Assembly: GCA_048538215.1 (NCBI GenBank)
Contig: JBLYPV010000001.1
Location: 333,499 to 397,498, forward strand
Direction: 5' to 3'
DNA length: 64,000 bases
DNA from: Patescibacteria group bacterium
GTDB taxonomy: Bacteria > Patescibacteriota > Minisyncoccia > Phycocordibacterales > GCA-2747955
The notes beneath the pieces were generated by a model, which was not told the DNA's origin, did no database searches, and worked only from the letters and a program-made list of their open reading frames with translations. The position numbers and the translations under genes are program-made. Positions 3,688-44,953 of this stretch are shown piece by piece (positions within the stretch are counted from its first letter, which is position 1; each line of letters opens with the position of its first letter).

Positions 3688-3828
3688 CTAGTGGACGCAA
3701 CGAACATAATTGCCATTGCTCTTATCATTCCGGTTCACATTGCCGTTATTGAGGTTCGTTTGATATGCGTTCGTGGGCGCAGACGGCGACTCGACAGACG
3801 ACCAGTAATTGCTCGCCGTAAAGCCTGC
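3688..3828 (-). repeat. DGR template repeat (TR), 141 bp
   Basis: Gap-free match to 4478-4618 with 10 mismatches. At every mismatch the TR has T on the + strand, which is A on the coding strand. It lies 44 nt upstream of the RT start. Confidence 0.9.
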
Positions 3829-3957
3829 ACATTTATTTCCTTCTGACTCAATCATGATAACAAACTATCCCTATTTGCTGTTTAGTTCAAATAGGAGCAG
3901 AAGGTGGCATTTTTTATCCACACTCTCTTATCAAACAGATAAGCGATTCTGGGAATA

Positions 3958-4317
3958 CTACTTTTTTTGTAGAAATTTCTTCCAATTCTTCGCTTGATTC
4001 AAGGCACTAACCACATTCTCTACTACAAAGGCATAGGCCTTCTTATTACCCAATTGTTCCAATTCATTGGCCACACGAGTGTATATCAACAACTTATTCA
4101 TCTCATTTTGTATAGCTGCTACATATTCTATTCTTTGGCTCTTGTCTCGACAATCACTAGCCTGATGTACCAACAACAAAGCATCTATAGGACATTCCAG
4201 CATCTTCTCTCCCAGCATATATTTATACTGTTTTGAAAATTTAGGAACTCTTTGATACAGATCCTTGAGTATAGACATGATGTCGTTATAAATAGGAAGT
4301 TCCGAGTGTGAAGCCAT
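3958..4317 (-). CDS. avd: DGR accessory variability determinant (Avd-like four-helix-bundle protein)
   Basis: About 119 aa between target and TR. 'ELPIYNDIMSILKDLYQRVPKFSKQY...IEYVAAIQNEMNKLL' fits the Avd / 23S-rRNA-IVS four-helix-bundle family. The track ORF runs to 4389. The start is chosen at the ATG with an upstream AAGG. Confidence 0.65.
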   Translation of the reverse strand: MASHSELPIYNDIMSILKDLYQRVPKFSKQYKYMLGEKMLECPIDALLLVHQASDCRDKSQRIEYVAAIQNEMNKLLIYTRVANELEQLGNKKAYAFVVENVVSALNQAKNWKKFLQKK

Positions 4318-4414
4318 AAATATTAATACCTTACTTATACTGGGCTCTCGATACATATTTGGCTGTCGCCAAATTATGTACGAGAGCATGCGAAAATGTG
4401 TAATGACGGGTCAG

Positions 4415-4461
4415 TAGATTCCTCTCAGGCAGTCCCTGCGGGACTGCCTGAGAGGAATCTA
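4415..4461 (-). promoter_or_regulatory. perfect 22-bp-stem / 3-nt-loop hairpin (cruciform) immediately 3' of the VR
   Basis: 'tagattcctctcaggcagtccc-tgc-gggactgcctgagaggaatcta' lies about 16 nt beyond the target stop. It is absent next to the TR. It is in the position of the hairpin/cruciform that DGR target recognition needs. Confidence 0.75.
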
Positions 4462-4477
4462 GACCCTTTCCGAAATG

Positions 4478-4618
4478 CTAGTGGACGCAACGAACATAAT
4501 AGCCATTGCTCTTATCATACCGGTTCACAGTGCCGTTACCGAGGTGCGTAAGATATGCGTACGTGGGCGCAGACGGCGACTCGACAGACGACCAGTAATA
4601 GCTCGCCGTAAAGCCTGC
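4478..4618 (-). repeat. DGR variable repeat (VR) at the 3' end of the target gene
   Basis: 141-bp match to the TR covering the last 46 codons plus stop of ORF 4478..5122. Differs from the TR only at TR-adenine positions. Confidence 0.9.
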
Positions 4619-5122
4619 TGGTTTGGCGCTATCTATATCATATAGAGCTCGGAGCGCCGATGGTCCAGACAGGCGCTTGCCAGCACTCTGGCACGCACTG
4701 ACTGCGCTCGACCAATTCTGCGTGCCACCAGTATCTGCATCATCAAAGGTGAAGACACCGGTAGGATCAACAGCATAGTAGGTTTCATTGAGAGTTGCAG
4801 CCACGCCAAAGTCGATAGTGGCTAATTCGGCGCGGTAATCACTATAGGTATCAGTAGAGATCCAACAGGCAGCCCCGTCGCTCTTCTCATCCAAGGCTGT
4901 TACCATAGTTTGTACGTGGCTATCATTACAGAATCCTTCATAGGTTGAGTTGACACTATAGTAGACTGCTGCTTGGCGGTGGATGTTACTGAGAGATGAG
5001 CGGATACCAGCTTCTCTAGCATCCTCTCGTGCGCTGTTGAGTGAGGCCACGACTCCTAGTGAGAGAATACCAATGATAGCGATGACCACCAACAGTTCGA
5101 TGAGAGTAAATCCTTGCTTCAT
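4478..5122 (-). CDS. DGR target: type IV pilin-like protein with a C-terminal C-type-lectin-fold variable domain
   Basis: The N-terminus 'MKQGFTLIELLVVIAIIGIL' is a class III prepilin signal. The C-terminus '...NGYYVRCVH' resembles the CLec-fold VR terminus. The VR is embedded. The probable start is at 5120-5122, while the track ORF starts at an upstream TTG at 5200. Confidence 0.85.
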   Translation of the reverse strand: MKQGFTLIELLVVIAIIGILSLGVVASLNSAREDAREAGIRSSLSNIHRQAAVYYSVNSTYEGFCNDSHVQTMVTALDEKSDGAACWISTDTYSDYRAELATIDFGVAATLNETYYAVDPTGVFTFDDADTGGTQNWSSAVSACQSAGKRLSGPSALRALYDIDSAKPAGFTASYYWSSVESPSAPTYAYLTHLGNGTVNRYDKSNGYYVRCVH

Positions 5123-5348
5123 ATTCCTAATACTACCCCCCCCTGACAAAAAACAAGAGTCATCGTCCACATACATAAATTGGGCTGTTGGACAGCCCAA
5201 TTTTCAATTATAATTTTCAGAACCCGGGATCCAAGACTAGCCCTCGTACATTTAATTTAAAATATACGCTCGATTTACTTTTCTGGATCGCGCGATACCT
5301 CCCCTCACACACGAGACGTGTGAGGGGATTCCAGGATGACAATCCATA

Positions 5349-6047: not shown

Positions 6048-8108
6048 TTACATATCTATTTCTGCCAATTTTGCATTAGCTACAATAAATGCCTTGCGTG
6101 GTGCTACTTCAGTACCCATCAAAACATCAAAGACCTTGTCAGCTTCAGCTGCGTCATCAATAGTGACTTGCCGAAGAATTCGATTATTAATATCCATTGT
6201 GGTTTCATAGAGCTCATCAGCATCCATCTCACCCAATCCCTTGTAGCGTCCCACTGTCACCTTCTTGCCATCTTTTGTTTTCATCACACGCTTTTTTTCT
6301 GGCACAAAATCTCCATCTTCAGCATCCTCCTCAGCATCCTCCTCTTCCTCACTGAGTGCTAGCTCTTTATATAGCGCTTGAAGCTCTTCCTCGCTTTGTA
6401 GGTATCGTTTTTCTTTGCCTATTTCGACCTTGTAAAGTGGTGGGTTAGCTACATATAAATACCCTCCTTCTATGATTGGCTTGAAGTGGCGATAAAATAA
6501 GGTAAGCAAAAGTGTAGTAATGTGTTCTCCATCTACATCTGCATCGGTAGCAATAATAATTTTGTGATAACGAAGCTTTTCAATATCAAATGTGTCACCA
6601 ATGCCAGTACCAAAGGCAATTACCATATTCTTAATCTGTTCTGATGCGAGCATTTTATCGAGTCGAGCTCGCTCTACATTAAGCACCTTTCCTCGCAGGG
6701 GCAAAATTGCCTGAGTGCGTCGATCACGACCCGTCTTTGCCGAACCACCAGCTGAATCTCCCTCCACGATAAATAGCTCTGATTCTTCAGCAGATTTAGT
6801 CTGACAATCAGCAAGCTTACCCGGAAGGGTCAAGCCCTCGAGCGCTCCTTTACGCAAGACGCTATCCTTGGCTGCCTTGGCAGCAGCCCGAGCGCGCATA
6901 GCCAAAAGCCCCTTATTGATGATAGCTTTTGCATCGTCTGGATTTTCTTCCAAAAATTCTGCAAGTGCTTCACCAAAAGCAGACTCCACCATTCCCTTGG
7001 CTTCGGTAGATCCAAGCTTGCCTTTAGTTTGTCCTTCAAATTGTGGATCAGCTAAATGTACAGAAATGACGGCAGTAAGCCCCTCAAGTAAATCATCCCC
7101 CGTGAGAGACCCGTCTTTTTCTTTGATGAGGGTGTTCTTTTTAGCATAATTATTAACTACACGGGTGAGAGCCGTTTTAAATCCAGTAAGATGGAATCCT
7201 CCTTCTGGATTAGGAATATTATTCGCATAAGCACTAATGCGAGAAGAAATATCATCAGTATATTGAAGAGCCACCTCTACTGCCTCGCCACTTTCGGGAT
7301 TAGTGATTTGTTGAGTATAAAATATTTTTTTGCCAATCGTTTTTAATGGCTTATTAAGAAATCGTACAAGCGAAAGCAAGCCTCCTTCAAAATAAAAAGT
7401 TTGTGAAGGAGCATCGTATACTTCATCATATAAATAGATTACATCATCTGGTGGCACTATTCCTGATTCACGCAAATCAATACAATGAATGGTCAGCCCC
7501 TTCACAAGGTATGCTTGACCTCGCATATGTTGAACAAGCCACTTCCAGCTATAATTAATTTCAGGAAAAATCTCTGGATCCGCCTGAAAGGCTATGATGG
7601 TCCCCTGATGATCTGTCTTCCCCTTCTTTTTTACATCATCTTGCTTAATACCACGAGAATATTCTTGTATATAGCGACTGCCATCTTTATGCACGGCTGC
7701 CTGAGTCCACTCTGAAAGCGCATTTACAACAGATGCTCCCACGCCGTGTAAACCACCTGATATTTTGTATCCACCATCACCAAATTTACCTCCTGCGTGC
7801 AGGGTGGTCATAATTGTATCAAGTGCTGAAACGCCTGTTTTTTTGTGCTTATCTACAGGAATACCACGCCCATTATCCACCACACGCACAATATTGCCCG
7901 GTAGCAATGCCACCTCTATTCGATTAGCATATCCTGCCATTGCCTCATCGCGCGAATTATCAAAAATCTCACGAATAAGAGTGTGTAAGCCCTCTACCCC
8001 AGTAGATCCGATATACATTCCTGGGCGTTTACGCACTGGCTCTAAACCCTCTAGGATTGAGATTTGCTCAGCACCATATGCATCTTCTTGTTTCTTCTTT
8101 GCTGTCAT
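6048..8108 (-). CDS. gyrB: DNA gyrase subunit B
   Basis: GHKL ATPase, Toprim ('EGDSAGGSAK') and GyrB tail. 686 aa. Confidence 0.95.
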   Translation of the reverse strand: MTAKKKQEDAYGAEQISILEGLEPVRKRPGMYIGSTGVEGLHTLIREIFDNSRDEAMAGYANRIEVALLPGNIVRVVDNGRGIPVDKHKKTGVSALDTIMTTLHAGGKFGDGGYKISGGLHGVGASVVNALSEWTQAAVHKDGSRYIQEYSRGIKQDDVKKKGKTDHQGTIIAFQADPEIFPEINYSWKWLVQHMRGQAYLVKGLTIHCIDLRESGIVPPDDVIYLYDEVYDAPSQTFYFEGGLLSLVRFLNKPLKTIGKKIFYTQQITNPESGEAVEVALQYTDDISSRISAYANNIPNPEGGFHLTGFKTALTRVVNNYAKKNTLIKEKDGSLTGDDLLEGLTAVISVHLADPQFEGQTKGKLGSTEAKGMVESAFGEALAEFLEENPDDAKAIINKGLLAMRARAAAKAAKDSVLRKGALEGLTLPGKLADCQTKSAEESELFIVEGDSAGGSAKTGRDRRTQAILPLRGKVLNVERARLDKMLASEQIKNMVIAFGTGIGDTFDIEKLRYHKIIIATDADVDGEHITTLLLTLFYRHFKPIIEGGYLYVANPPLYKVEIGKEKRYLQSEEELQALYKELALSEEEEDAEEDAEDGDFVPEKKRVMKTKDGKKVTVGRYKGLGEMDADELYETTMDINNRILRQVTIDDAAEADKVFDVLMGTEVAPRKAFIVANAKLAEIDM

Positions 8109-29638: not shown

Positions 29639-29698
29639 AATCAAAACGCTACGCTATACCTAGCATTTTGATTTTATAACAAATAAATGGTTTAATTA

Positions 29699-30265
29699 TT
29701 GGTAATTGACCTATCAAGGGAGGCCTGGATGCTTGCTCATCTCAAAAAATACGCTCGAATTTCCCCCGCTTTCACCGTACGCGGTAATAGCAATGGATAT
29801 CTCGAGGATTTCTATGCTCACCATATCGGTGAATTTAATGTCGAGCCGATATATACCAATTGTCTCTCAAGAAAATCGGCTCGGCGCTATATTACCGAAA
29901 TTCCTCGTGAGGAGTGGCGGATCCTGCACTGGAAACAAACATGGAAGGAGATTTATACCAGTATATTTGATCCATGGGATAATTTGTATGCCTTTCTTTG
30001 CCCCTATGTATTCTTCTCACATCTTCGATACCTGATTAATCGGAGTGTCCATGATCCACATAGCGCCCTCTCTCTTCCTCTTGGCTACGACTGCGACTAC
30101 GTACAAGCTTTTCTCAAGCTTGATGGAATGGAGCCCGTGCAAGTTTGTATAAGCGGTGACTTCCGTATTCCCAAGTGGCAAATAGACCTCAGAAGCTGGG
30201 ATGGGCACCCCACGATCTGGCGCGAACGTGATAGGATTCTGATCCCTGCACTTAGGGGAGGCTGA
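29699..30265 (+). CDS. hypothetical protein (188 aa, Trp-rich)
   Basis: Intact ORF followed by a strong terminator. Confidence 0.5.
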   Translation: MVIDLSREAWMLAHLKKYARISPAFTVRGNSNGYLEDFYAHHIGEFNVEPIYTNCLSRKSARRYITEIPREEWRILHWKQTWKEIYTSIFDPWDNLYAFLCPYVFFSHLRYLINRSVHDPHSALSLPLGYDCDYVQAFLKLDGMEPVQVCISGDFRIPKWQIDLRSWDGHPTIWRERDRILIPALRGG

Positions 30266-32315: not shown

Positions 32316-33713
32316 TTGTATTTCTATATGCTTGCATCAATTTTTCCACTTGTTAGCTCTATTATTTTTCTCTCTTTTGCAGCTGCTGTTTTTCTTAGTG
32401 ATACGCGTGCGCGCGTGAAGTATATCTTTGTCACTCTTTGTTTGGCAACATTCTGGTGGCAATTTTCATGGTTTATTCTCTTTAATACCCACGATGCCGA
32501 GCTCGCCTTGCTAATCTCAAAGATTGGCTATATTGGGGTCCTATTTCTTCCGGTATTGCTCTATCAATTTATCCTTATCATCACAGATAATCGATCCACT
32601 TTTGGTCGGATCATTTTATATGTAAGCTACACCATTAGTACCATTTTTCTCATTTTGCTTCTCACCAGTGATGCCATCATTAGTGGTGTTTCTGATTTTT
32701 CTTGGGGATTTTATCCAAAAGCAGGCAGCTTTCATCCAGCTCTCATTCTCCTCACTTTTATTTTGATGGTAAGTGGGCTCCTGGTACTTTGGAAAAGATA
32801 CCGAGAAACAAGATCATTCGAAAAACAACAGCAAATTAGATTTCTTTTGTATGCAATCATACTCTATAATCTTTCAAGTATAGATTTTATCGCTAATTAT
32901 GAAGTCAATATTTATCCGATAAGCTTTATTGCACTTGGATTTTTTATTTTCCTTATCTGGCAAGGGATATCTCACCACTATTTACTAAAAATATCCAATC
33001 ATTTTAAATATATCCTAAGCTATATTTTTGTATTTATATATATGTGGATTGCCACCGAATTATATATCTTCCTATTCAAAATAATTGGTGTGCTCAGGCT
33101 CTCCCCTCTTGATGAACTCAGCCGACTATTTGTAACTGCGATTCTCGCAGGAGTAGGTATTATTATCTATCACTTTAGTACCAAATTTATTGAACAAGCT
33201 CTTTATAAATACAGGAACCCAAATCGTTTATTGATCAAAATTCACGAAGAAATTATCGATTGCGAATCAAAAAAAGAATTACTAGAAACGATGAGCCAAA
33301 TTTTAGATTTTGTTTTCTCTGTCGATCATGCTTATGTATTGGTAAAAAATGATGCTGATACAAAAGATAATATAGAGATTATTACAAGCCAGCACAGCTC
33401 TAAAAAACACCCGCTAGGAATTGGCTCTCTAAAAGATTTTGCTGGCACTAAGCATAATTTGCCTCAAGAATTAATTACTATTGATAATCTCAAATATTTT
33501 GCCCTGCTTGAAGGTACTCAAGAAAAAATAATTGAAGAGATGAAAATAAATTGTATTGCAGTGATTGCTCCTATGTACTATGAAGAGAATTTTATTGGCA
33601 ATTTGATTTTAGGAGAAAAGCCATATCAAGAGCGCTATACCGAAGAAGAAAAACGCTTTATCGAGCGTATCGTGCCTCTCTTTGCTAAAAAGCTTGCTAC
33701 GTTAAAAAAGTAA
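32316..33713 (+). CDS. membrane sensor protein: 7-TM (7TMR-DISM-like) N-terminus plus cytoplasmic GAF-like domain, no output domain
   Basis: Seven hydrophobic helices followed by a roughly 170-aa alpha/beta domain. No kinase motifs. Confidence 0.55.
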   Translation: MYFYMLASIFPLVSSIIFLSFAAAVFLSDTRARVKYIFVTLCLATFWWQFSWFILFNTHDAELALLISKIGYIGVLFLPVLLYQFILIITDNRSTFGRIILYVSYTISTIFLILLLTSDAIISGVSDFSWGFYPKAGSFHPALILLTFILMVSGLLVLWKRYRETRSFEKQQQIRFLLYAIILYNLSSIDFIANYEVNIYPISFIALGFFIFLIWQGISHHYLLKISNHFKYILSYIFVFIYMWIATELYIFLFKIIGVLRLSPLDELSRLFVTAILAGVGIIIYHFSTKFIEQALYKYRNPNRLLIKIHEEIIDCESKKELLETMSQILDFVFSVDHAYVLVKNDADTKDNIEIITSQHSSKKHPLGIGSLKDFAGTKHNLPQELITIDNLKYFALLEGTQEKIIEEMKINCIAVIAPMYYEENFIGNLILGEKPYQERYTEEEKRFIERIVPLFAKKLATLKK

Positions 33714-33737
33714 ATGATTTATCTCCTGTAGCTCTCT

Positions 33738-33747
33738 GGTATAATAT
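33738..33747 (+). promoter_or_regulatory. extended -10 promoter element (TGGTATAAT) for tRNA-Ser
   Basis: Perfect TGnTATAAT ends about 10 nt before the tRNA 5' end. Confidence 0.5.
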
Positions 33748-33756
33748 CTTCCTATT

Positions 33757-33846
33757 GGAGAGATGGCTGAGCGGCTTAAGGCGCACGCTTGGAAAGCGTG
33801 TGAGGGTTTACGCCCTCCGCGGGTTCGAATCCCGCTCTCTCCGCCA
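33757..33846 (+). tRNA. tRNA-Ser (anticodon GGA), long variable arm, CCA encoded
   Basis: Acceptor stem ggagaga/tctctcc, anticodon loop 'ttGGAaa', T-arm 'gggttcgaatccc', 90 nt. Confidence 0.9.
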
Positions 33847-34336
33847 TTTTACGATTTTGTCGGTTTTGGAAGTTTTACGCACCTGCGGTGCGATTGCCTC
33901 GCCCGCAGGCGAGGCTGAAGGGGCTGATTTTGCAACGATTTGCCACGCTCTGCGTGGCGAAAAAGAAATGTTTTGGTTTTGGATTTGGAAGTTCGAACCA
34001 ATCTTTTTTAGAAAATCCCGAATCCCTTCGGGATTTTCTTTGGAAGCGATAATTTTGGCTTGTTTGCTGTCTTTTATGAATTTCTCGGCGAGTTCGAAAG
34101 ATTTTGTTACACTTAGGTTGTAAAATTCGGATAAAAACGAGTTATGTGCAATTCAAAAAATATTTTTCTTGATGTAAAAAGGAGATAGGCTTTCTAGGAA
34201 TGGGAATAAATTTGATTTTTTCTTTATTTAAAGAGGGGGATAATATTGTGTTTTCTCCGCTCCGCTCCGAAAACGATTTATTTATAAATTGAAAAACATA
34301 ACAAAACTTATATAATACAAATAACTTTTACTTTTT

Positions 34337-35131
34337 ATGGGAAACAATATGACACTAATAGATACAAAATACTTCAAAGAGTATAGAGAAAAACTTGGTT
34401 TTACAAACCAAAATGGAGTTAAGGCATTTTTTGCTGCAAGAGATATAATTCCAACAGTAGATTATAATTATATAAATTTGCTAAATGACAGACTTCTTGA
34501 AATTGTCGCAAAAATAAATGATTTAGTTGTTGAAGATATAAAAGTAGAAGATTTAGATTTGTTTTGTGATGAAAACATTAAAACCGTTTTTGAAAAATTA
34601 AAAAATCACAACATCATTTCAAGACTAAATAATCAAGGAAGAAGACCAGAAGAAGTTTATTTTTCATGGATGCGTGGTTTTGTTATTTCATCATATTTTT
34701 TAAATGCTTTAAGTCAAGTTTTTGAAGTTGATATAGAAAATATTGATTTAATCGGAGATGACGATTTAGTAAATATTGAAACTTTCAAAAGAACACCAAA
34801 AGCAGATTTACAAATTAATTTAAAAAATGGTGAAAAAGTTAGAATTGAAGTTCAGTCAGGATTTCAAGGAATTAACGACATTAAACAGCATAAAGTTTTG
34901 GAAGCTAAAAAAATCAAAAGAGAAGAAAACATTTCTTCAATGGTAATTCATTTTGATTTATTTAATGGTCAAGTTGCTTTCGTAAAAATAGATAAAATTG
35001 ACGATGATAGTGTTAATTGGATAACAAGACAACAAATGGAAGGTCAAACTGTTTTTAATATAGACCAAAATTATTTTGCTTGGAAACTAACTGAAAATCC
35101 ACCTAAATATACAGATTTATCTTTTTCATAA
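34337..35131 (+). CDS. putative Type II restriction endonuclease (partner of the downstream C5-MTase)
   Basis: 264-aa ORF 10 bp upstream of a C5-MTase on the same strand, with the same low-GC codon usage. It contains a possible PD-(D/E)xK-like segment 'PKADLQINL...RIEVQSG'. No family confirmed. Confidence 0.4.
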   Translation: MGNNMTLIDTKYFKEYREKLGFTNQNGVKAFFAARDIIPTVDYNYINLLNDRLLEIVAKINDLVVEDIKVEDLDLFCDENIKTVFEKLKNHNIISRLNNQGRRPEEVYFSWMRGFVISSYFLNALSQVFEVDIENIDLIGDDDLVNIETFKRTPKADLQINLKNGEKVRIEVQSGFQGINDIKQHKVLEAKKIKREENISSMVIHFDLFNGQVAFVKIDKIDDDSVNWITRQQMEGQTVFNIDQNYFAWKLTENPPKYTDLSFS

Positions 35132-35140
35132 GGTATAATT

Positions 35141-36259
35141 ATGGCTAAAAAAATTAAAATTATAGACTTATTTGCAGGAGTTGGAGGATTAAGTTATGGC
35201 TTTGCTCATGACGATAATTTTGAAATTGTTGCAGCAAATGAAATTTTGCCGAATATGGCAAAAGCATACGAACTAAACCATCCGTCTGTAAAAGTATATT
35301 GCAAAGATATTAAAGAATTTGGAATTAAAGATTTAGAAAAAGATTTTGGAATTAAAAAAGGAGATGTTGATTTAATTGTTGGGGGTCCTCCTTGTCAAGC
35401 ATATTCAACAGTTGGCAAAAGACTGATAGATGATCCAAAAGGTAAATTGTTTCAAGAATATTACAGAATTCTTAAAGAATTAGACCCGAAAGTATTTTTA
35501 TTTGAAAATGTAAAAGGACTTTTATCGATGCAGGGTGGAGAATTGTTAAAAACAATTATTTCTTTGTTTGAATCATTAGGATATAAAGTTGTCTATAAGG
35601 TTTTAAATTCTGCTGATTATGGAGCACCACAAGTAAGAGAAAGAGTTATAATAATTGGAACAAAACTTAACTCTAAATTTAATTATCCTGAATCAACACA
35701 TTATAATCCAGAAGAAGAGCAAACTCTTTTGACACAAGAATTAAAACCATATTTAACTTTGGCAGAAGCAATAAGCGATCTTCCATTTATTAAAAGTAGT
35801 GAAGAAAGTTTTGAGTATTCTACTGAACCAGCAAATGAATTTCAAAAATTAATGAGAAAAAATGCTCCTGAAAAATTAATGGATCATAATGCTCCAAATA
35901 ATAATGAAAACTTAGTGAAGATTATGGAAAATCTGCCTGATGGCGGAACTCCAAAGGATTTACCAGAAGAATTAAGACCAAAAAGTGGTTTTGCAAATAC
36001 TTACTGTAGGCTTTGGTGGAATAGACCAAGTACAACAATTACAAGAAATTTAAGCACTCCTTCATCTTCAAGATGTATTCATCCGAAAGCACCAAGACCA
36101 CTAACGACAAGAGAAGGAGCAAGAATACAATGTTTTCCTGATAATTATGTTTTCTATGGTTCAAGAAGTGATAAAAATTTACAAATTGGAAATGCAGTAC
36201 CGACATTTTTATCAAGTGCTTTAAAAGATTCAATTAAGAAACATTTTTTAGAAGAATAA
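35141..36259 (+). CDS. dcm: DNA (cytosine-5)-methyltransferase
   Basis: Motif I 'DLFAGVGG', motif IV 'GGPPCQAYS', motif VI 'ENVKGL', and the C-terminal 'QIGNAVP'. Confidence 0.9.
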   Translation: MAKKIKIIDLFAGVGGLSYGFAHDDNFEIVAANEILPNMAKAYELNHPSVKVYCKDIKEFGIKDLEKDFGIKKGDVDLIVGGPPCQAYSTVGKRLIDDPKGKLFQEYYRILKELDPKVFLFENVKGLLSMQGGELLKTIISLFESLGYKVVYKVLNSADYGAPQVRERVIIIGTKLNSKFNYPESTHYNPEEEQTLLTQELKPYLTLAEAISDLPFIKSSEESFEYSTEPANEFQKLMRKNAPEKLMDHNAPNNNENLVKIMENLPDGGTPKDLPEELRPKSGFANTYCRLWWNRPSTTITRNLSTPSSSRCIHPKAPRPLTTREGARIQCFPDNYVFYGSRSDKNLQIGNAVPTFLSSALKDSIKKHFLEE

Positions 36260-36529
36260 GGAGTTTTGAAAAATGAAATACAATAATACAAAGCCCACCA
36301 AAAACGGAATAATATTGATAAATTTTTCAAAAATACGCAAGGCACATTGCACTCTCACTCCGCTATCGCTCCGTTCGGCTCGCCTAACACAGTATATGCG
36401 GTTCACTCGTTGCACTTCGCTCTCCCATATTTTGCTCCGTTTCACTCCGCAAAACATCGCATATACTGAAACGTTGTTCGCAATTGATAGGAAACAAAAA
36501 TTTATAAACAAAATAAAATATAAAATCTT

Positions 36530-36706
36530 ATGAAGCAAAAAAATCAAAATTTAATTGGAATTATAAGTGCAATTACTTCAGGAATTGCTTTTTTAGCAAT
36601 AAAATATCTTTTTTCTGGAGAAATTGATTTTTTAACTTCAATTATATTTATGTTAACTTTTGGAACTACCTATATTTTGTTACATAAATTTTTTGGTAAA
36701 AAGTGA
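36530..36706 (+). CDS. 58-aa two-TM small membrane peptide (holin/toxin-like)
   Basis: ATG...TGA ORF below the track cutoff. 'NLIGIISAITSGIAFLAIKYLF' and 'FLTSIIFMLTFGTTYILL' are hydrophobic helices. Confidence 0.35.
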   Translation: MKQKNQNLIGIISAITSGIAFLAIKYLFSGEIDFLTSIIFMLTFGTTYILLHKFFGKK

Positions 36707-36826
36707 TTTTGTTTCCTATCAACTTCTTCGGAGTTTTTCCAAAACTCCTCGACCACGCTGCGCTCTCCTCCTTTCAGTCGTCGGGGCGTATAACATGGAA
36801 TAAAAGAACAGCTTGGAATAGACGAG

Positions 36827-38062
36827 GTGGATGAAAATTTAGATTTACCAGAAGGCAAAGAACACGATGATGACAAAAAAAAGCATGGTGGAAAAGAAGA
36901 TCAACATAACGACATCTTAAAAAAAGAGGATTTAGCAAAGAAAGGAGGCGGAGATAAAAAAGACGGAGAAACTGGTGAGGGAGATAAAGGAAAGCCAAGC
37001 GAGGGTAAGTGAAAAGATGGAGAAGCTGGACACGGAGAGGGAGAAAAAGGCGAAGCAGGTAAAGGTAAAGGTGATAAGGGAGAGGCTGGCGCAGGAAAAG
37101 GAGACAAAGGTGAACCCTCTGGCATGGGACAGGGCGGAAAAGAGGGCATGGAAAATAAAGACGAAACAGGGTTACCTCCTGAATCCGCAGAAGCCGAACA
37201 AAAAAAAGTAAGCCAGGAAGGATTTTTAGTGGGCGGAGGCAAGAGCAAGTCAATCTATGCCGAACGAGTACAAAATTCCCTCATTACACACGAAGGAGAA
37301 AGCTTAACAAAAAAGGATATTGAAGAAAGAGAAAAAAGAGTTGAAAAAGTTGATCGTCGCGAGCGTTATGAAGCACGACCAGACAAAGCAAGTATGCGTG
37401 AGGTTATTAGGAGCTTACGCAGAATCATTACTGATGTATCAGAAGTCAAAAGTAGTGATGTTGATCTAAAAAGAACAGTCAAAAACTTTGCTCGTCGTGA
37501 TTTTTGATTTGACTATGAACGCGAAAGAGAAAAACAACCTGAGGTGGTTTTACTTATTGATGTAGGTGGGCCAGTAGATGAATGGAGTCCGCTAATGAAA
37601 GAAGTTGCCGAGGAAATGGCAAAAGGTCTAACGAAACTTGAAGTTTACTTATTCCATAATAATCTCTATGGATATGTATGGAAACCAGACCCAAAAGATT
37701 TACTTGCCTCTAGTTATGCAAAACCAAATTCGTTGATTGATATAAAAAAGGTAATTAAAAAGAGAAAGAAAGTAATTGTATATGGCGACGCGGAAATGTC
37801 ATACTCTGAATTTGAAGGTGACGGCTGGCCTCCAAGTGGCAACGACGAAAGAGTAGAAAAGTTTGGGATGGGTGGCGATGAGTGTTTAAATTTCATTAAG
37901 AAAAAAGCAGACTCGGTTGTGTGGATCAATCCTGTGTTTGCAAAAGAGTGGGAAGAAAGGGATGACTCGGGAACAATTGGAGCGATTAGTGAGATTGTGC
38001 CGATGCATGATCTAACTGTAGGTGGTGTGGAGGATGCAATTAAGGAGCTGATGAAGAAATAA
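36827..38062 (+). pseudogene. VWA-like (CoxE-type) domain protein with N-terminal Gly/Lys/Glu low-complexity region. One frame is interrupted by two in-frame TGA codons (37010-37012 and 37505-37507). It is either a pseudogene or a TGA-sense gene.
   Basis: Track ORFs 36827..37012, 37124..37507 and 37544..38062 all share frame 2 and are separated only by TGA. The C-terminal 'VVLLIDVGGP...LEVYLFHNNLYGYVW...VIVYGDAEM' resembles a VWA/CoxE fold. Confidence 0.55.
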
Positions 38063-38237
38063 AGGGAGCTTCCGCTTGCGCGCGCATGGGTGGGTTGGGG
38101 CAAGCGCATATAGATTTACTTGTGACATTCGGACATTCGCTAGGGTGGCGGAAAGTGCTCGTGGTGTAATATAGGCTCAAATGAAAGCCTTAAATGGGTA
38201 GAGAGACTTGAATTTGTGGAGAAAAACCTTGGGGCTT

Positions 38238-38816
38238 TCATCTATCAAAAATTTTTTCAATAGTAGACTCAATATACATTCCCACTCCGTGCGCAATTTC
38301 CGCCCACGCCATTGCCAATGCTAGAAATATAAGACTCTCCCCTGGTACCCCCTGATACTCCAAGCCCAAAGATGCTATTTGTGATTGAACAATATTGCCA
38401 CCAAACAAAGCAAGAGCAAAAAGTGACACTAGTAGATACTGCGCATCATTGATCATCTCTATATAAAATAGCTTTATACGCCCTCGATAGGCAGCGAGAG
38501 CGCTATCAAATCCAGCAAAGCCGATAATCCAGCCGATAGCTGTATAAAACCATAAGCTCTCTTGATAGCCAAAATATATTATCGCTGCGCCAATGATAGT
38601 CATCACAAATCCTAGCATAATCACTCCTCCCCTATTCATCCCCCAACGCATAATAGCTCCCTGCAAAATCATTCGGAGAATCCGTGCTGCCAAAATACCA
38701 TACACCCAAGTAAGGAGAATGCTAATCATCACTGGTGAAACCACCGTAGGAAATATCCATAGCAGGGTGAGTGCTGTAGCGATAACAAAGGTCGTACTGT
38801 CAATATATCGACTCAT
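38238..38816 (-). CDS. hypothetical integral membrane protein (192 aa)
   Basis: 5-6 TM helices. Confidence 0.5.
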   Translation of the reverse strand: MSRYIDSTTFVIATALTLLWIFPTVVSPVMISILLTWVYGILAARILRMILQGAIMRWGMNRGGVIMLGFVMTIIGAAIIYFGYQESLWFYTAIGWIIGFAGFDSALAAYRGRIKLFYIEMINDAQYLLVSLFALALFGGNIVQSQIASLGLEYQGVPGESLIFLALAMAWAEIAHGVGMYIESTIEKIFDR

Positions 38817-43926: not shown

Positions 43927-44913
43927 TTAATCATCCTCACTTTCTTCATATTCCTCAATAGCGCTAATAATTGGGCCAATATCACCATCAAGAATTTTTT
44001 CTATATTTGACCATGATTTTTTGATACGATGATCGGTAATTCTGTCTTGGGGGAAATTATAAGTACGAATTTTTTCACTTCGGTCTCCTGTGCCTACCTG
44101 TTTTTTTCGGTGAGCTGCGTATTTTTCTTCGTGAGCTCTGTCCTGCATTTCTTGTAATTGTGAAAGTAAAAGCGACATTGCCCTCTCATGATTTTTTAGC
44201 TGAGTACGCTCAGCGGTGGATCGTACAGAAATTCCTGTGGGCTTGTGTGTGAGTCGTACAGCTGACTCTACCTTGTTTACATTTTGTCCCCCAGCTCCCC
44301 CCGATCGAGAAGTCTCTCGCTCGATATCGGCATCATCTATTTTTACTGTAATGCGCTTTTTGACGGGCATAATAGCTACGGTGACCGTAGAGGTATGCAC
44401 TCGGCCATTCTTTTCGGTAGCAGGAATACGCTGTACGCGATGTACACCTGTCTCGTGTCGTAGCTTTTTATAGCAATCGAGCCCTTTGACTTCAAACATA
44501 GCTTCTTTGTATCCGCCAGCCTCATTCATTGATGTATCACTCAATCGCCATTGCCATCCTTGGCTAAGGACATACTTTTCATACATCTCGGCAAGTTCTG
44601 TGGCAAAAAGTGATGCTTCATCACCCCCTGCTCCCGCACGAATTTCTAAAACAAGCTCATTAGGAAATCGTTCTTCTTCCTTTTCGCTTGCTTCAATGTG
44701 CTTGATTTGTTCTTCAATGCCTTGCAACTGCTCGTTGATTGTCGCAATATCTTCTTCTGCCATTTCTGCCATTTCTGTATCCTCTGCCAATTCTTGTGCC
44801 TCAGCTTTTTCTGTCTCTAGACGCAGATATTCATTAGCAAGAAAAGCAGTCTTAGGATTATCCAAGAAGCGAGATACATCAAATACATTGTCTTGGTCTT
44901 CTTTTTGTGTCAT
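43927..44913 (-). CDS. prfA: peptide chain release factor 1
   Basis: GGQ motif '[17 protein letters not shown]' and the RF1-type tripeptide 'IPATE' (PxT). Confidence 0.9.
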
Positions 44914-44953
44914 AGTAGGCGAAATTATAGCACATAGTGATTATAATAAAGAG

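Follow-up and report, generated by a model that had tools for sequence, protein, structure and literature searches.

The restriction endonuclease MaeII (A^CGT) is reportedly to be credited to Schmid et al. in 1984. According to the genome paper of Methanococcus aeolicus PL15/Hp, this strain is the commercial source of MaeII; M.MaeII is its 5-methylcytosine (m5C) enzyme acting on ACGT, and its other methyltransferases are of the m4C or m6A type (Fomenkov et al. 2023, PMC10113651). Restriction-modification (R-M) units without mobility genes have been found to enter genomes both by insertion with long target duplication and by substitution, and R-M genes flanked by inverted repeats have also been described (Furuta, Abe & Kobayashi 2010, PMC2853133). 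Here we analysed a 64-kb stretch of DNA from a Patescibacteria genome (the window, to which all positions refer), in which a preliminary description had outlined a low-GC segment with a putative R-M pair at 33847-38230, directly downstream of a tRNA-Ser gene. We conclude that this genome very probably acquired a foreign block of about 2.7 kb with a MaeII-type R-M system, which overwrote the front of a host operon beside the tRNA gene. Loci and contigs used for comparison are designated by L-numbers and homologous proteins by P-numbers.

The block stands out by its base composition. GC content is 29.4% over 34109-36784 as against 41.7% in the rest of the window (z = -8.6), and the lowest of 561 windows of equal length (2.7 kb) elsewhere has 36.8%. 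In sliding windows, GC content runs at 25-32% from about 34.0 to 36.75 kb, with 36% in a single window near 36.2 kb, and mostly at 39-47% on either side of the dip. The open reading frames (ORFs) of the restriction (R) and modification (M) genes have a GC content at third codon positions (GC3) of 13.4-13.6%, compared with 34.6 ± 4.2% and a minimum of 29% in 34 host ORFs. AGA accounts for 91-93% of arginine codons in the block ORFs versus 12% in host genes, and the shares of TTA (52-58% versus 18%) and AAA (89-95% versus 64%) are raised as well. The preliminary description was therefore right about a fall in GC content from about 40% to about 30% and about a shift towards AGA, TTA and AAA codons, and proper calculation gave a composition that is anything but uniform. 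The limits that it had set have to be redrawn: it placed the drop directly after the tRNA gene and the return of host-like composition at about 38.2 kb, but the first 262 nt 3' of the tRNA (33847-34108) have 44% GC and are ancestral, and host-like composition resumes at about 36.8 kb, with a VWA-like frame of 41% GC and a GC3 of 35%. Because this spacer and this frame are both host-like in composition, the true foreign segment is about 2.7 kb (approximately 34125-36797) rather than 4.4 kb. Another low-GC gene lies outside the imported block, directly upstream of the tRNA: it encodes a 465-aa HisKA_7TM-domain membrane protein (32316-33713) and has 34% GC (32-35% in sliding windows) as against 42% for the window, and its nearest relatives in the genome collection are at most 41% identical.

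The core of the block consists of two genes on the forward strand, R (264 aa, 34337-35131) and M (372 aa, 35141-36259). They are separated by 9 nt from stop codon to ATG, and the earlier account of two same-strand genes about 10 bp apart is thus accurate. By profile and motif content, the M protein is an intact C5-cytosine DNA methyltransferase: it matches PF00145 (5.5e-79) over profile positions 1-324 of 324, TIGR00675 (3.7e-69) and the PADLOC Type II methyltransferase model MTase_II (5e-107), and its translation carries motifs I (DLFAGVGG), IV (GGPPCQ), VI (ENVKGL) and X (QIGNAVP). The R protein gave no match in Pfam, NCBIfam or PADLOC, nor in phmmer or profile searches of the PDB. It belongs to a large family, with 1271 homologs that fall into 171 clusters at 50% identity; the best 120 of them, with 71-98% identity, belong to Patescibacteria, Flavobacteriia, Campylobacterota and Methanococcus, and several homologs carry the NCBI name 'restriction endonuclease'.

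We modelled the structure of R with AlphaFold (AF2) from an alignment of 38 diverse family members (pLDDT 94, pTM 0.86) and compared the model with the PDB using Foldseek. Nearly all of the top ~45 matches were PD-(D/E)xK enzymes, at probabilities of 0.8-1.0. They included Hjc, RecU/PrfA, HincII, DpnI and SwaI (probability ~1.0) as well as the nuclease domains of SPARDA and Card1; E-values were just ~1e-3 and TM-scores normalised to Hjc were 0.44-0.58, and an earlier model agreed. We regard the assignment of R to the PD-(D/E)xK nuclease fold, as predicted by the model, as solid. The suggestion that 34337-35131 encodes such an enzyme was thus borne out by the predicted fold and not by sequence or profile searches, and Foldseek returned almost exclusively PD-(D/E)xK nucleases rather than a non-nuclease family. 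Residues conserved in at least 90% of the family, which includes members down to 22% identity, comprise E105, D157, K183 and K186; almost every member has E or D at position 171, and the position of the canonical Lys, 173, is Gln or variable. We propose E105, D157, E171 and K183/K186 as a candidate active site, in which K183/K186 of the next helix may substitute for the canonical Lys. The R protein of the window is full length and retains every residue with family-wide conservation of at least 90%.

R and M form a constant pair. We collected 80 metagenomic loci that encode a member of the R family, of which 66 have at least 600 nt of downstream sequence, and an M homolog (72-95% identical) follows on the same strand in all 66. 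It is directly adjacent in 53 of these loci, is set off by a gap of ~680 nt in 10 and appears apart in 3 through BLAST fragmentation only. Where inspected (L040 and L080), the gap is occupied by an extra gene of 220-228 aa. This gene X (L040 1261-1947, L080 2370-3032, L126 2581-3258) is present in about 10 of the 66 MaeII-like loci, including the nearest relatives of the window (93-97% R identity), and its similarity to R, of a D...E.Q-like kind, is weak (E 0.019); it had no match in Pfam or PADLOC and none to a defence system. The window has no gene X, a difference with clean limits at the R-M junction.

Two lines of evidence bear on the recognition sequence. The first is avoidance of ACGT in the genomes that carry the cassette. 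We calculated observed-to-expected (O/E) ratios by a maximal-order Markov model for all 16 palindromic tetramers in the host DNA that flanks the cassette, using 31 independent carrier loci (344 kb) and 23 non-carrier loci (374 kb). The pooled O/E of ACGT was 0.16 in carriers versus 0.80 in controls (per-locus medians 0.08 and 0.80), and ACGT ranked first in depletion among the palindromes in 16 of 31 carriers versus 2 of 23 controls. It is also the most depleted tetramer in the host DNA of the window, with 44 occurrences observed and 110 expected (O/E 0.40). The second line is kinship. An R homolog, P0097, is encoded on the chromosome of M. aeolicus PL15/Hp (CP104873.1; locus L120), 10 bp upstream of a 370-aa PF00145 methyltransferase. 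The M protein of the window is 84% identical to this C5-methyltransferase, with 0 gaps over 369 aa that include the variable target-recognition region, and the R proteins are 72% identical. Because carriers avoid ACGT and both proteins show this identity to the M. aeolicus pair, we file the pair as a probable Type IIP system of the MaeII type (ACGT, m5C), whose activity and exact specificity we infer. The Type II R-M operon that had been proposed from gene geometry is upheld by the nuclease fold, the constant linkage to the methyltransferase family and the homology to the MaeII system.

What the block replaced can be read from the gene that it truncates. The frame at 36798-38062 (forward strand) is the 3' two-thirds of a gene for a VWA (CoxE-like) protein. 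It starts at about residue 168 and matches residues 168-511 of full-length homologs, which are 458-519 aa long and up to 87% identical (76-87% for the best relatives); in the alignment it lacks the N-terminal ~170 residues. It is also interrupted by two in-frame TGA codons. The first (37010-12) aligns with a Gly of P0122, the single homolog that shares a low-complexity insert, and the second (37505-07) with a near-invariant Arg (RRDF-R-FDYE; CGA to TGA). In the relatives L033-L039, a gene for an AAA_5 ATPase of 560-564 aa (PF07728, 1.9e-6; PF05762 is on record for two VWA homologs) always lies 2 bp upstream of the VWA gene, together with a small ORF, and no trace of either the ATPase gene or the small ORF is found in the 64-kb window. 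L033 shows the complete layout without R-M genes: tRNA-Ser(CGA), spacer, small ORF, AAA gene and VWA gene. Its spacer (7620-7743) is 81% identical to the conserved core (33987-34108) of the spacer that follows tRNA-Ser(GGA) in the window. Because L033 shares both spacer and layout and has no R-M genes, the alignments give the ancestral order as tRNA-Ser, spacer, small ORF, AAA, VWA. On our reconstruction, about 2.7 kb of foreign DNA replaced about 2.76 kb of this operon, which ran from the small ORF through the AAA gene to VWA codon 167. The comparison of relatives for presence and absence thus gave the layout without R-M genes but no orthologous empty site. The TGA-interrupted VWA-like gene was correctly noted and wrongly counted as foreign: its host composition and its homology mark it as a decaying host remnant truncated by the insertion, neither cargo nor a case of recoding.

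Recoding of TGA (code 4 or 25) was considered and rejected. The TGAs stand at Arg and Gly positions, ORFs of 1089-1244 aa are present under code 11, and reading TGA as sense lengthens ORFs no more than reading TAG or TAA as sense. Among ORFs of at least 150 codons in the window, the stop codon is TAA in 36, TAG in 14 and TGA in 7, with shadow ORFs making up most of the last group; the long ORFs considered include 29696-30265 (forward strand) and 38238-38816 (reverse strand). The sole release factor encoded in the window is RF1, with PAT and GGQ motifs (43927-44940, minus strand). TGA is thus strongly avoided as the stop of credible genes, with no sign of TGA recoding.

The AAA-VWA module, with its small ORF, occurs in three neighbourhoods (L033, L038 and the window), and in L038 it is immediately preceded by a gene for a large serine recombinase (3803-5266, minus strand). 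The AAA-VWA pair may therefore be accessory or mobile in its own right. It had no match to a PADLOC defence model or to a Pfam defence-system family.

The boundaries of the imported block are sharp. Homology to L033 ends at 34108, and homology to carriers starts at about 34125 (L051), 34131 (L150) or 34141 (L129). These alignments place the left junction in 34109-34124, a zone unlike both the ancestral spacer and the imported block, and the right junction at about 36797-36802, which coincides exactly with the start of VWA homology. The imported R-M leader (34125-34336, forward strand) is 93-94% identical to L126-129, 87% to L040 and 79% to L150. Two motifs lie within it, the left-end motif GTTATGTGC (34141-49) and a second one, CTCCGCTCCGCTCCG (34255-69). 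The top promoter-scan match of the region, with a score of 11/12, also falls in this leader: a promoter-like site that reads TTGAAA-16-TATAAT (34289-34316). Downstream of M, an imported 3' trailer (36260-36475, forward strand) is 87% identical to L040, and a diverged copy of it lies downstream of M in L056. A GC-richer, non-coding-looking element at about 36340-36475 within the trailer includes the motif CTCCGCTATCGCTCCG (36358-73). As a structured RNA this element is unconvincing (z -1.4 and -2.2).

How far homology extends differs among the relatives of the R-M unit. In L024-L032 (84-87% nucleotide identity) it is limited to the two coding sequences, and the neighbourhoods are unrelated; L040 (87%) is homologous over 34188-36475; the closest relatives, L126-L129 (93-94%), share 34141-35143, 35140-36282 and 36753-36802 and have gene X between R and M. 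Between trailer and right junction lies a further segment, module B (36476-36797, forward strand), which is 84% identical at the nucleotide level to L123-L125, contigs of 30% GC with archaeal eIF-1A, eIF-2beta/eIF-5, PC4 and TrmB genes. It contains the ORF of a 58-aa peptide with two predicted transmembrane (TM) segments (36530-36706, forward strand). This is the small two-TM peptide of the preliminary description, and comparison identifies it as a conserved ORF: it shares 84% identity with a called gene on the archaeal-gene contigs and 100% with a hypothetical protein from a Patescibacteria metagenome-assembled genome (MAG), which is probably the source genome. The ORF lies between perfect inverted arms of 16 nt (36484-99 and 36707-22), and a hairpin (36730-48) follows them. 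The 16-bp helix between leader and 3' end is kept in three sequences with one A-U to G-U change, only two of these sequences being independent; the 3' hairpin shows four compensatory changes, and the consensus fold keeps the closing helix. In its layout the module recalls the way in which hok-type toxin mRNAs fold back. The last 50 nt of the import (right-end segment, 36753-36802) are 94-96% identical to L126-129 and L150 and include the right-end motif GCGTATAACA (36786-95).

Because the nearest relative of module B differs from that of the R-M unit, the alignments resolve the block as a mosaic of at least two modules, the R-M unit and the 58-aa-ORF module. The closest relatives of both are found in further low-GC genomes, some of them archaeal. 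The nearest copies have hosts among archaea, as shown by eIF-1A genes in L024-29 and L123-125, as well as among bacteria, as shown by sigma-70 and DnaG genes in L030. Composition, codon usage and homology to unrelated contexts together support a horizontal origin of the block, as had been supposed.

The sequence of events that we favour is as follows. Foreign AT-rich DNA would have taken the place of the small ORF, of the gene for the AAA_5 ATPase and of the VWA gene as far as codon ~167, and the headless VWA gene would then have gained two nonsense mutations. Transcription would run from the imported promoter-like site through R into M. With S-adenosylmethionine, M would methylate C5 of the cytosine in ACGT on both strands, and R, probably as a homodimer as is usual for such enzymes, would cut unmethylated ACGT in incoming DNA. 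General R-M biology suggests that post-segregational cutting may kill cells that lose the cassette, and the recent, unameliorated block may persist partly because its loss would be penalised in this way. No integrase or transposase accompanies the genes, and the R-M family spreads as a bare gene pair, often by insertion with long target duplication and here by substitution.

Several points weigh against this reading. Carriers and controls in the ACGT comparison differ in taxonomy, and GGCC and CCGG are also somewhat lower in carriers. Position 173 of R, that of the Lys in (D/E)xK, is Gln or variable, so the choice of K183 or K186 as catalytic Lys is a guess. PMC10113651 and its supplements give no coordinates for the MaeII genes, and the L120 pair is equated with MaeII by elimination, from the statement that M.MaeII is the m5C enzyme of the strain. 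For the genome studied here, activity and ACGT specificity, like the order of events and the donor, are read from sequence. The window comes from a MAG, and its junctions are junctions of an assembly. L033, L038 and the window share no other genes, the best VWA relatives lie in neighbourhoods different from that of the window, and the replacement is reconstructed from a non-orthologous context. We found no sister genome with an intact operon at the exact locus; among species-representative genomes, relatives of the anchor gene upstream of the tRNA are at most 41% identical, and exact look-ups of HtpX and the 58-aa protein returned no contig.

The first rival, by now largely refuted and very improbable, keeps to the extent first given: 33847-38230 would be a decayed island that had integrated at tRNA-Ser and lost its integrase, with the R-M pair, the peptide gene and the VWA gene all as cargo. 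The segment does lie downstream of a tRNA gene, and the AAA-VWA pair, found in three neighbourhoods and in L038 beside a large serine recombinase, is perhaps accessory. Furthermore, the MaeII-like cassette of L106 lies beside a tRNA-Ser gene and has a 53-nt repeat that includes the tRNA 3' end. However, no integrase or transposase was found within ±6 kb, which confirms the absence of an integrase noted before, and patterns of 19 and 26 nt from the tRNA 3' end, searched with up to 3 mismatches, occur in the 64-kb window solely in the tRNA itself. Both the 262-nt spacer and the VWA remnant are host-like, the low-GC DNA has sharp homology boundaries of its own inside the stretch, and L033 has the same layout without R-M genes. 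The locus thus shows none of the marks of a tRNA island: an integrase, a repeat of the tRNA 3' end, and foreign DNA that begins without a spacer of host composition, here 262 nt. Because L033 has tRNA-Ser and the same spacer upstream of AAA-VWA in the absence of R-M genes, the adjacency to tRNA-Ser appears to be inherited and to predate the insertion, and is not a sign of integration. A degraded element integrated at tRNA-Ser is accordingly not supported, with the VWA gene no part of a cargo, and neither is a defence island, as nothing besides the R-M pair matched a known defence system. MaeII-like cassettes do occur downstream of tRNA-Ser genes in L106 (tRNA at 16-103) and L114 (tRNA at 40-129), with anticodons TGA and GCT; this proximity may be coincidence or a mild site preference.

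A second rival leaves the acquisition in place and denies its function: M would be effectively an orphan or regulatory methyltransferase, the 264-aa gene would be inactive or would serve a purpose other than restriction, and the two would not form a working R-M system. This would fit a protein that has no sequence match in Pfam, NCBIfam, PADLOC or the PDB, in which the canonical (D/E)xK Lys is not conserved and whose activity is predicted from sequence. We hold it to be very improbable, as R is full length, keeps the residues conserved at 90% or more, has a confidently predicted nuclease fold and is linked to M in 66 of 66 loci. In addition, the strong avoidance of ACGT in carriers implies cutting pressure beyond methylation, and a homologous pair is present in the strain from which MaeII is purified. 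It is hardly credible that the low-GC block is an assembly chimera with DNA of a co-occurring low-GC organism: the source is a metagenome-assembled genome and the block is 93-94% identical to contigs of other samples, but both flanks are host-like and follow the order of a single ancestral operon, with the spacer to the left of the block and the VWA gene from codon ~168 onward to its right, a tidy internal replacement inside a 623-kb contig is not expected of a chimera, and the block is unlike every other copy in that it has no gene X, a half-deleted terminator hairpin and a fusion to module B.

Replacement of the operon front by an R-M block thus remains our reading, and the flanks of other family members show how such cassettes move. 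Locus-specific direct repeats of 50-234 nt flank the cassette in at least 8 carrier loci (L047, 234 nt; L109, 163; L097, 92; L086, 64; L024, 56; L106, 53; L054, 50), and exact repeats of at least 14 nt were found in 14 of 56 loci versus 2 of 56 in a reversed-sequence control. The M. aeolicus pair (L120, CP104873.1) is flanked by a 100-nt direct repeat (4818-4917 and 6927-7026; 93% identical, 2109 nt apart), which duplicates the 5' end of the downstream Trm112-like gene and is a long target duplication; we found no mention of it in the available portions of PMC10113651. The sole flanking repeat in the window measures 15-16 nt and consists of CTCCGCTCCGCTCCG at 34255-69 and CTCCGCTATCGCTCCG at 36358-73. 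As the CTCCGCTATCGCTCCG motif is also the 16-nt exact direct repeat that flanks the L040 cassette, the repeat in the window was imported with the unit.

Part of the family also shares sequence outside the genes. The window, L051, L056, L129 and L150 become homologous exactly at GTTATACGCAATTC and are conserved from there to the start codon, and the trailer has a shared motif, CCACGCTGCGCTCTC. In L126-129 the left end, TGTTATACGC, when inverted and complemented, reads exactly as GCGTATAACA near the right end, and module B of L125 has a variant end pair, TGTTAATTGC/GCAATTAACA. These covarying, 10-bp inverted-repeat-like ends lie at 34141-34149/36786-36795 in the window, 268-279/3235-3244 in L129 and ~243-252/~545-554 in L125. 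In L150, an IMG/VR contig of 26% GC, a leader 85% identical to that of L129 and a trailer of ~300 nt with 90% identity enclose a different cargo (L150 1299-4226, minus strand; the corresponding parts of the window are 34131-34333 and 36244-36802). This cargo is a single gene for an 845-aa protein with HSDR_N_2, N6_Mtase and Eco57I/MmeI-type domains, by domain content a Type IIG-like fused R-M enzyme, and the swap points fall at the edges of the coding sequence, one no more than a few nt from the start codon and the other ~16 nt short of the stop codon. A 15-mer scan of viral contigs gave 40 matches, of which 1, L150, was genuine, and a scan with the leader 22-mer GGGAATAAATTTGATTTTTTCT returned L150 again and nothing else.

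It is possible, if doubtful, that these sequences belong to a small promoter-bearing frame without mobility genes that carries interchangeable cargo, an undescribed non-autonomous vehicle for defence genes. Such a frame would consist of a leader of ~200 nt beginning at GTTATACGCAATTC and a trailer of ~270 nt, with inverted copies of the end motif. Its cargo would be the MaeII-like pair, with or without gene X, the 845-aa Type IIG enzyme, or the 58-aa peptide gene, as on the archaeal contigs with their covarying ends. If this were true, the frame would shuttle defence genes among DPANN-type archaea, bacteria of the Candidate Phyla Radiation (CPR) and possibly their viruses. In the loci compared we saw one alternative cargo and neither target-site duplications nor empty sites. 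A simple terminal-inverted-repeat transposon is weakened as an explanation, because L129, L150 and L125 remain homologous for ~88 nt past GCGTATAACA and have no target-site duplication.

The host side of the locus shows a conserved element of its own. The tRNA-Ser(GGA) gene (33757-33846, forward strand; found by ARAGORN, Rfam tRNA 55.5 bits) is a host gene, and no Rfam family other than tRNA was detected within 33600-38400. In the spacer behind it (33847-34108, forward strand; 44% GC), the ~125-nt conserved core (33987-34108; L033 7620-7743), 81% identical between otherwise unrelated neighbourhoods, is better conserved than the VWA coding sequence (74-76%) and has no Rfam match; it includes a terminator-like hairpin, AAAATCCCGAA...TTCGGGATTTT. 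The neighbours of the locus encode ThrRS, MnmA, the 7TM protein, a membrane protein, HtpX, LemA, Tgt and RF1.

Taken as a whole, the locus records an ordinary acquisition of defence genes from the known MaeII family that is unusually well resolved. It offers a clean case in which an R-M unit overwrote a host operon and the collateral pseudogene is still legible. It suggests a probable ACGT/m5C specificity for a large family without a model in Pfam, NCBIfam or PADLOC, for which we found no solved relative of the nuclease in the PDB. It also shows that CPR bacteria with small genomes take up working-looking defence genes from a pool that they have in common with archaea and free-living bacteria. 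For annotation, the locus carries a warning: a TGA-interrupted gene can reflect decay and not recoding, and adjacency to a tRNA gene does not imply an integrative island. Finally, the test for ACGT avoidance, which compares the flanks of carriers with non-carrier loci, can be reused for the specificity of uncharacterised R-M families in metagenomes.

We finally set the parts of the locus beside the systems that they resemble. The 58-aa ORF module, with its small two-TM peptide and its 16-bp helix between 5' and 3' ends, may be compared with a candidate Type I toxin-antitoxin system (hok/sok-like), in which 5'-3' pairing closes the mRNA of a small hydrophobic peptide and an antisense RNA controls it. 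Relatives of the truncated gene have an AAA_5 ATPase gene 2 bp upstream of the VWA gene, as in MoxR/CoxD AAA and CoxE VWA pairs; unlike such pairs, the window has lost the ATPase gene and the N-terminus of the VWA protein, and the remainder is broken by two stop codons. R shares with the solved PD-(D/E)xK structures (Hjc, RecU/PrfA, HincII, DpnI and SwaI) a predicted alpha-beta-beta-beta-alpha-beta core, with the acidic residue E105 in a helix, D157 at the start of strand 2 and the acidic residue E171 in strand 3. It differs from the solved chains in having no detectable sequence similarity to them, in a helical N-terminal domain of ~130 aa and in the third motif position, which is Gln or variable.

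Like the units of Furuta et al. (2010), the window has a bare R-M pair with no integrase or transposase, and it belongs to the substitution type. The long target duplication that they described, with repeats of >30 bp, is seen in L120, L109 and L047 and not in the window, whose repeat was inherited with the unit rather than made from host target DNA. Beyond those units, the sub-lineage to which the window belongs shares a conserved leader/trailer frame with inverted-repeat-like ends. The closest match is the MaeII system itself. Both loci have an R protein of ~260 aa, a gap of ~10 bp and a C5-methyltransferase of ~370 aa on the same strand, and carriers of the family avoid ACGT. They differ in their hosts, Patescibacteria for the window and a methanogen for MaeII, and in their mode of entry, which was substitution into an AAA-VWA operon in the window as against insertion with a 100-nt target duplication in M. 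aeolicus.

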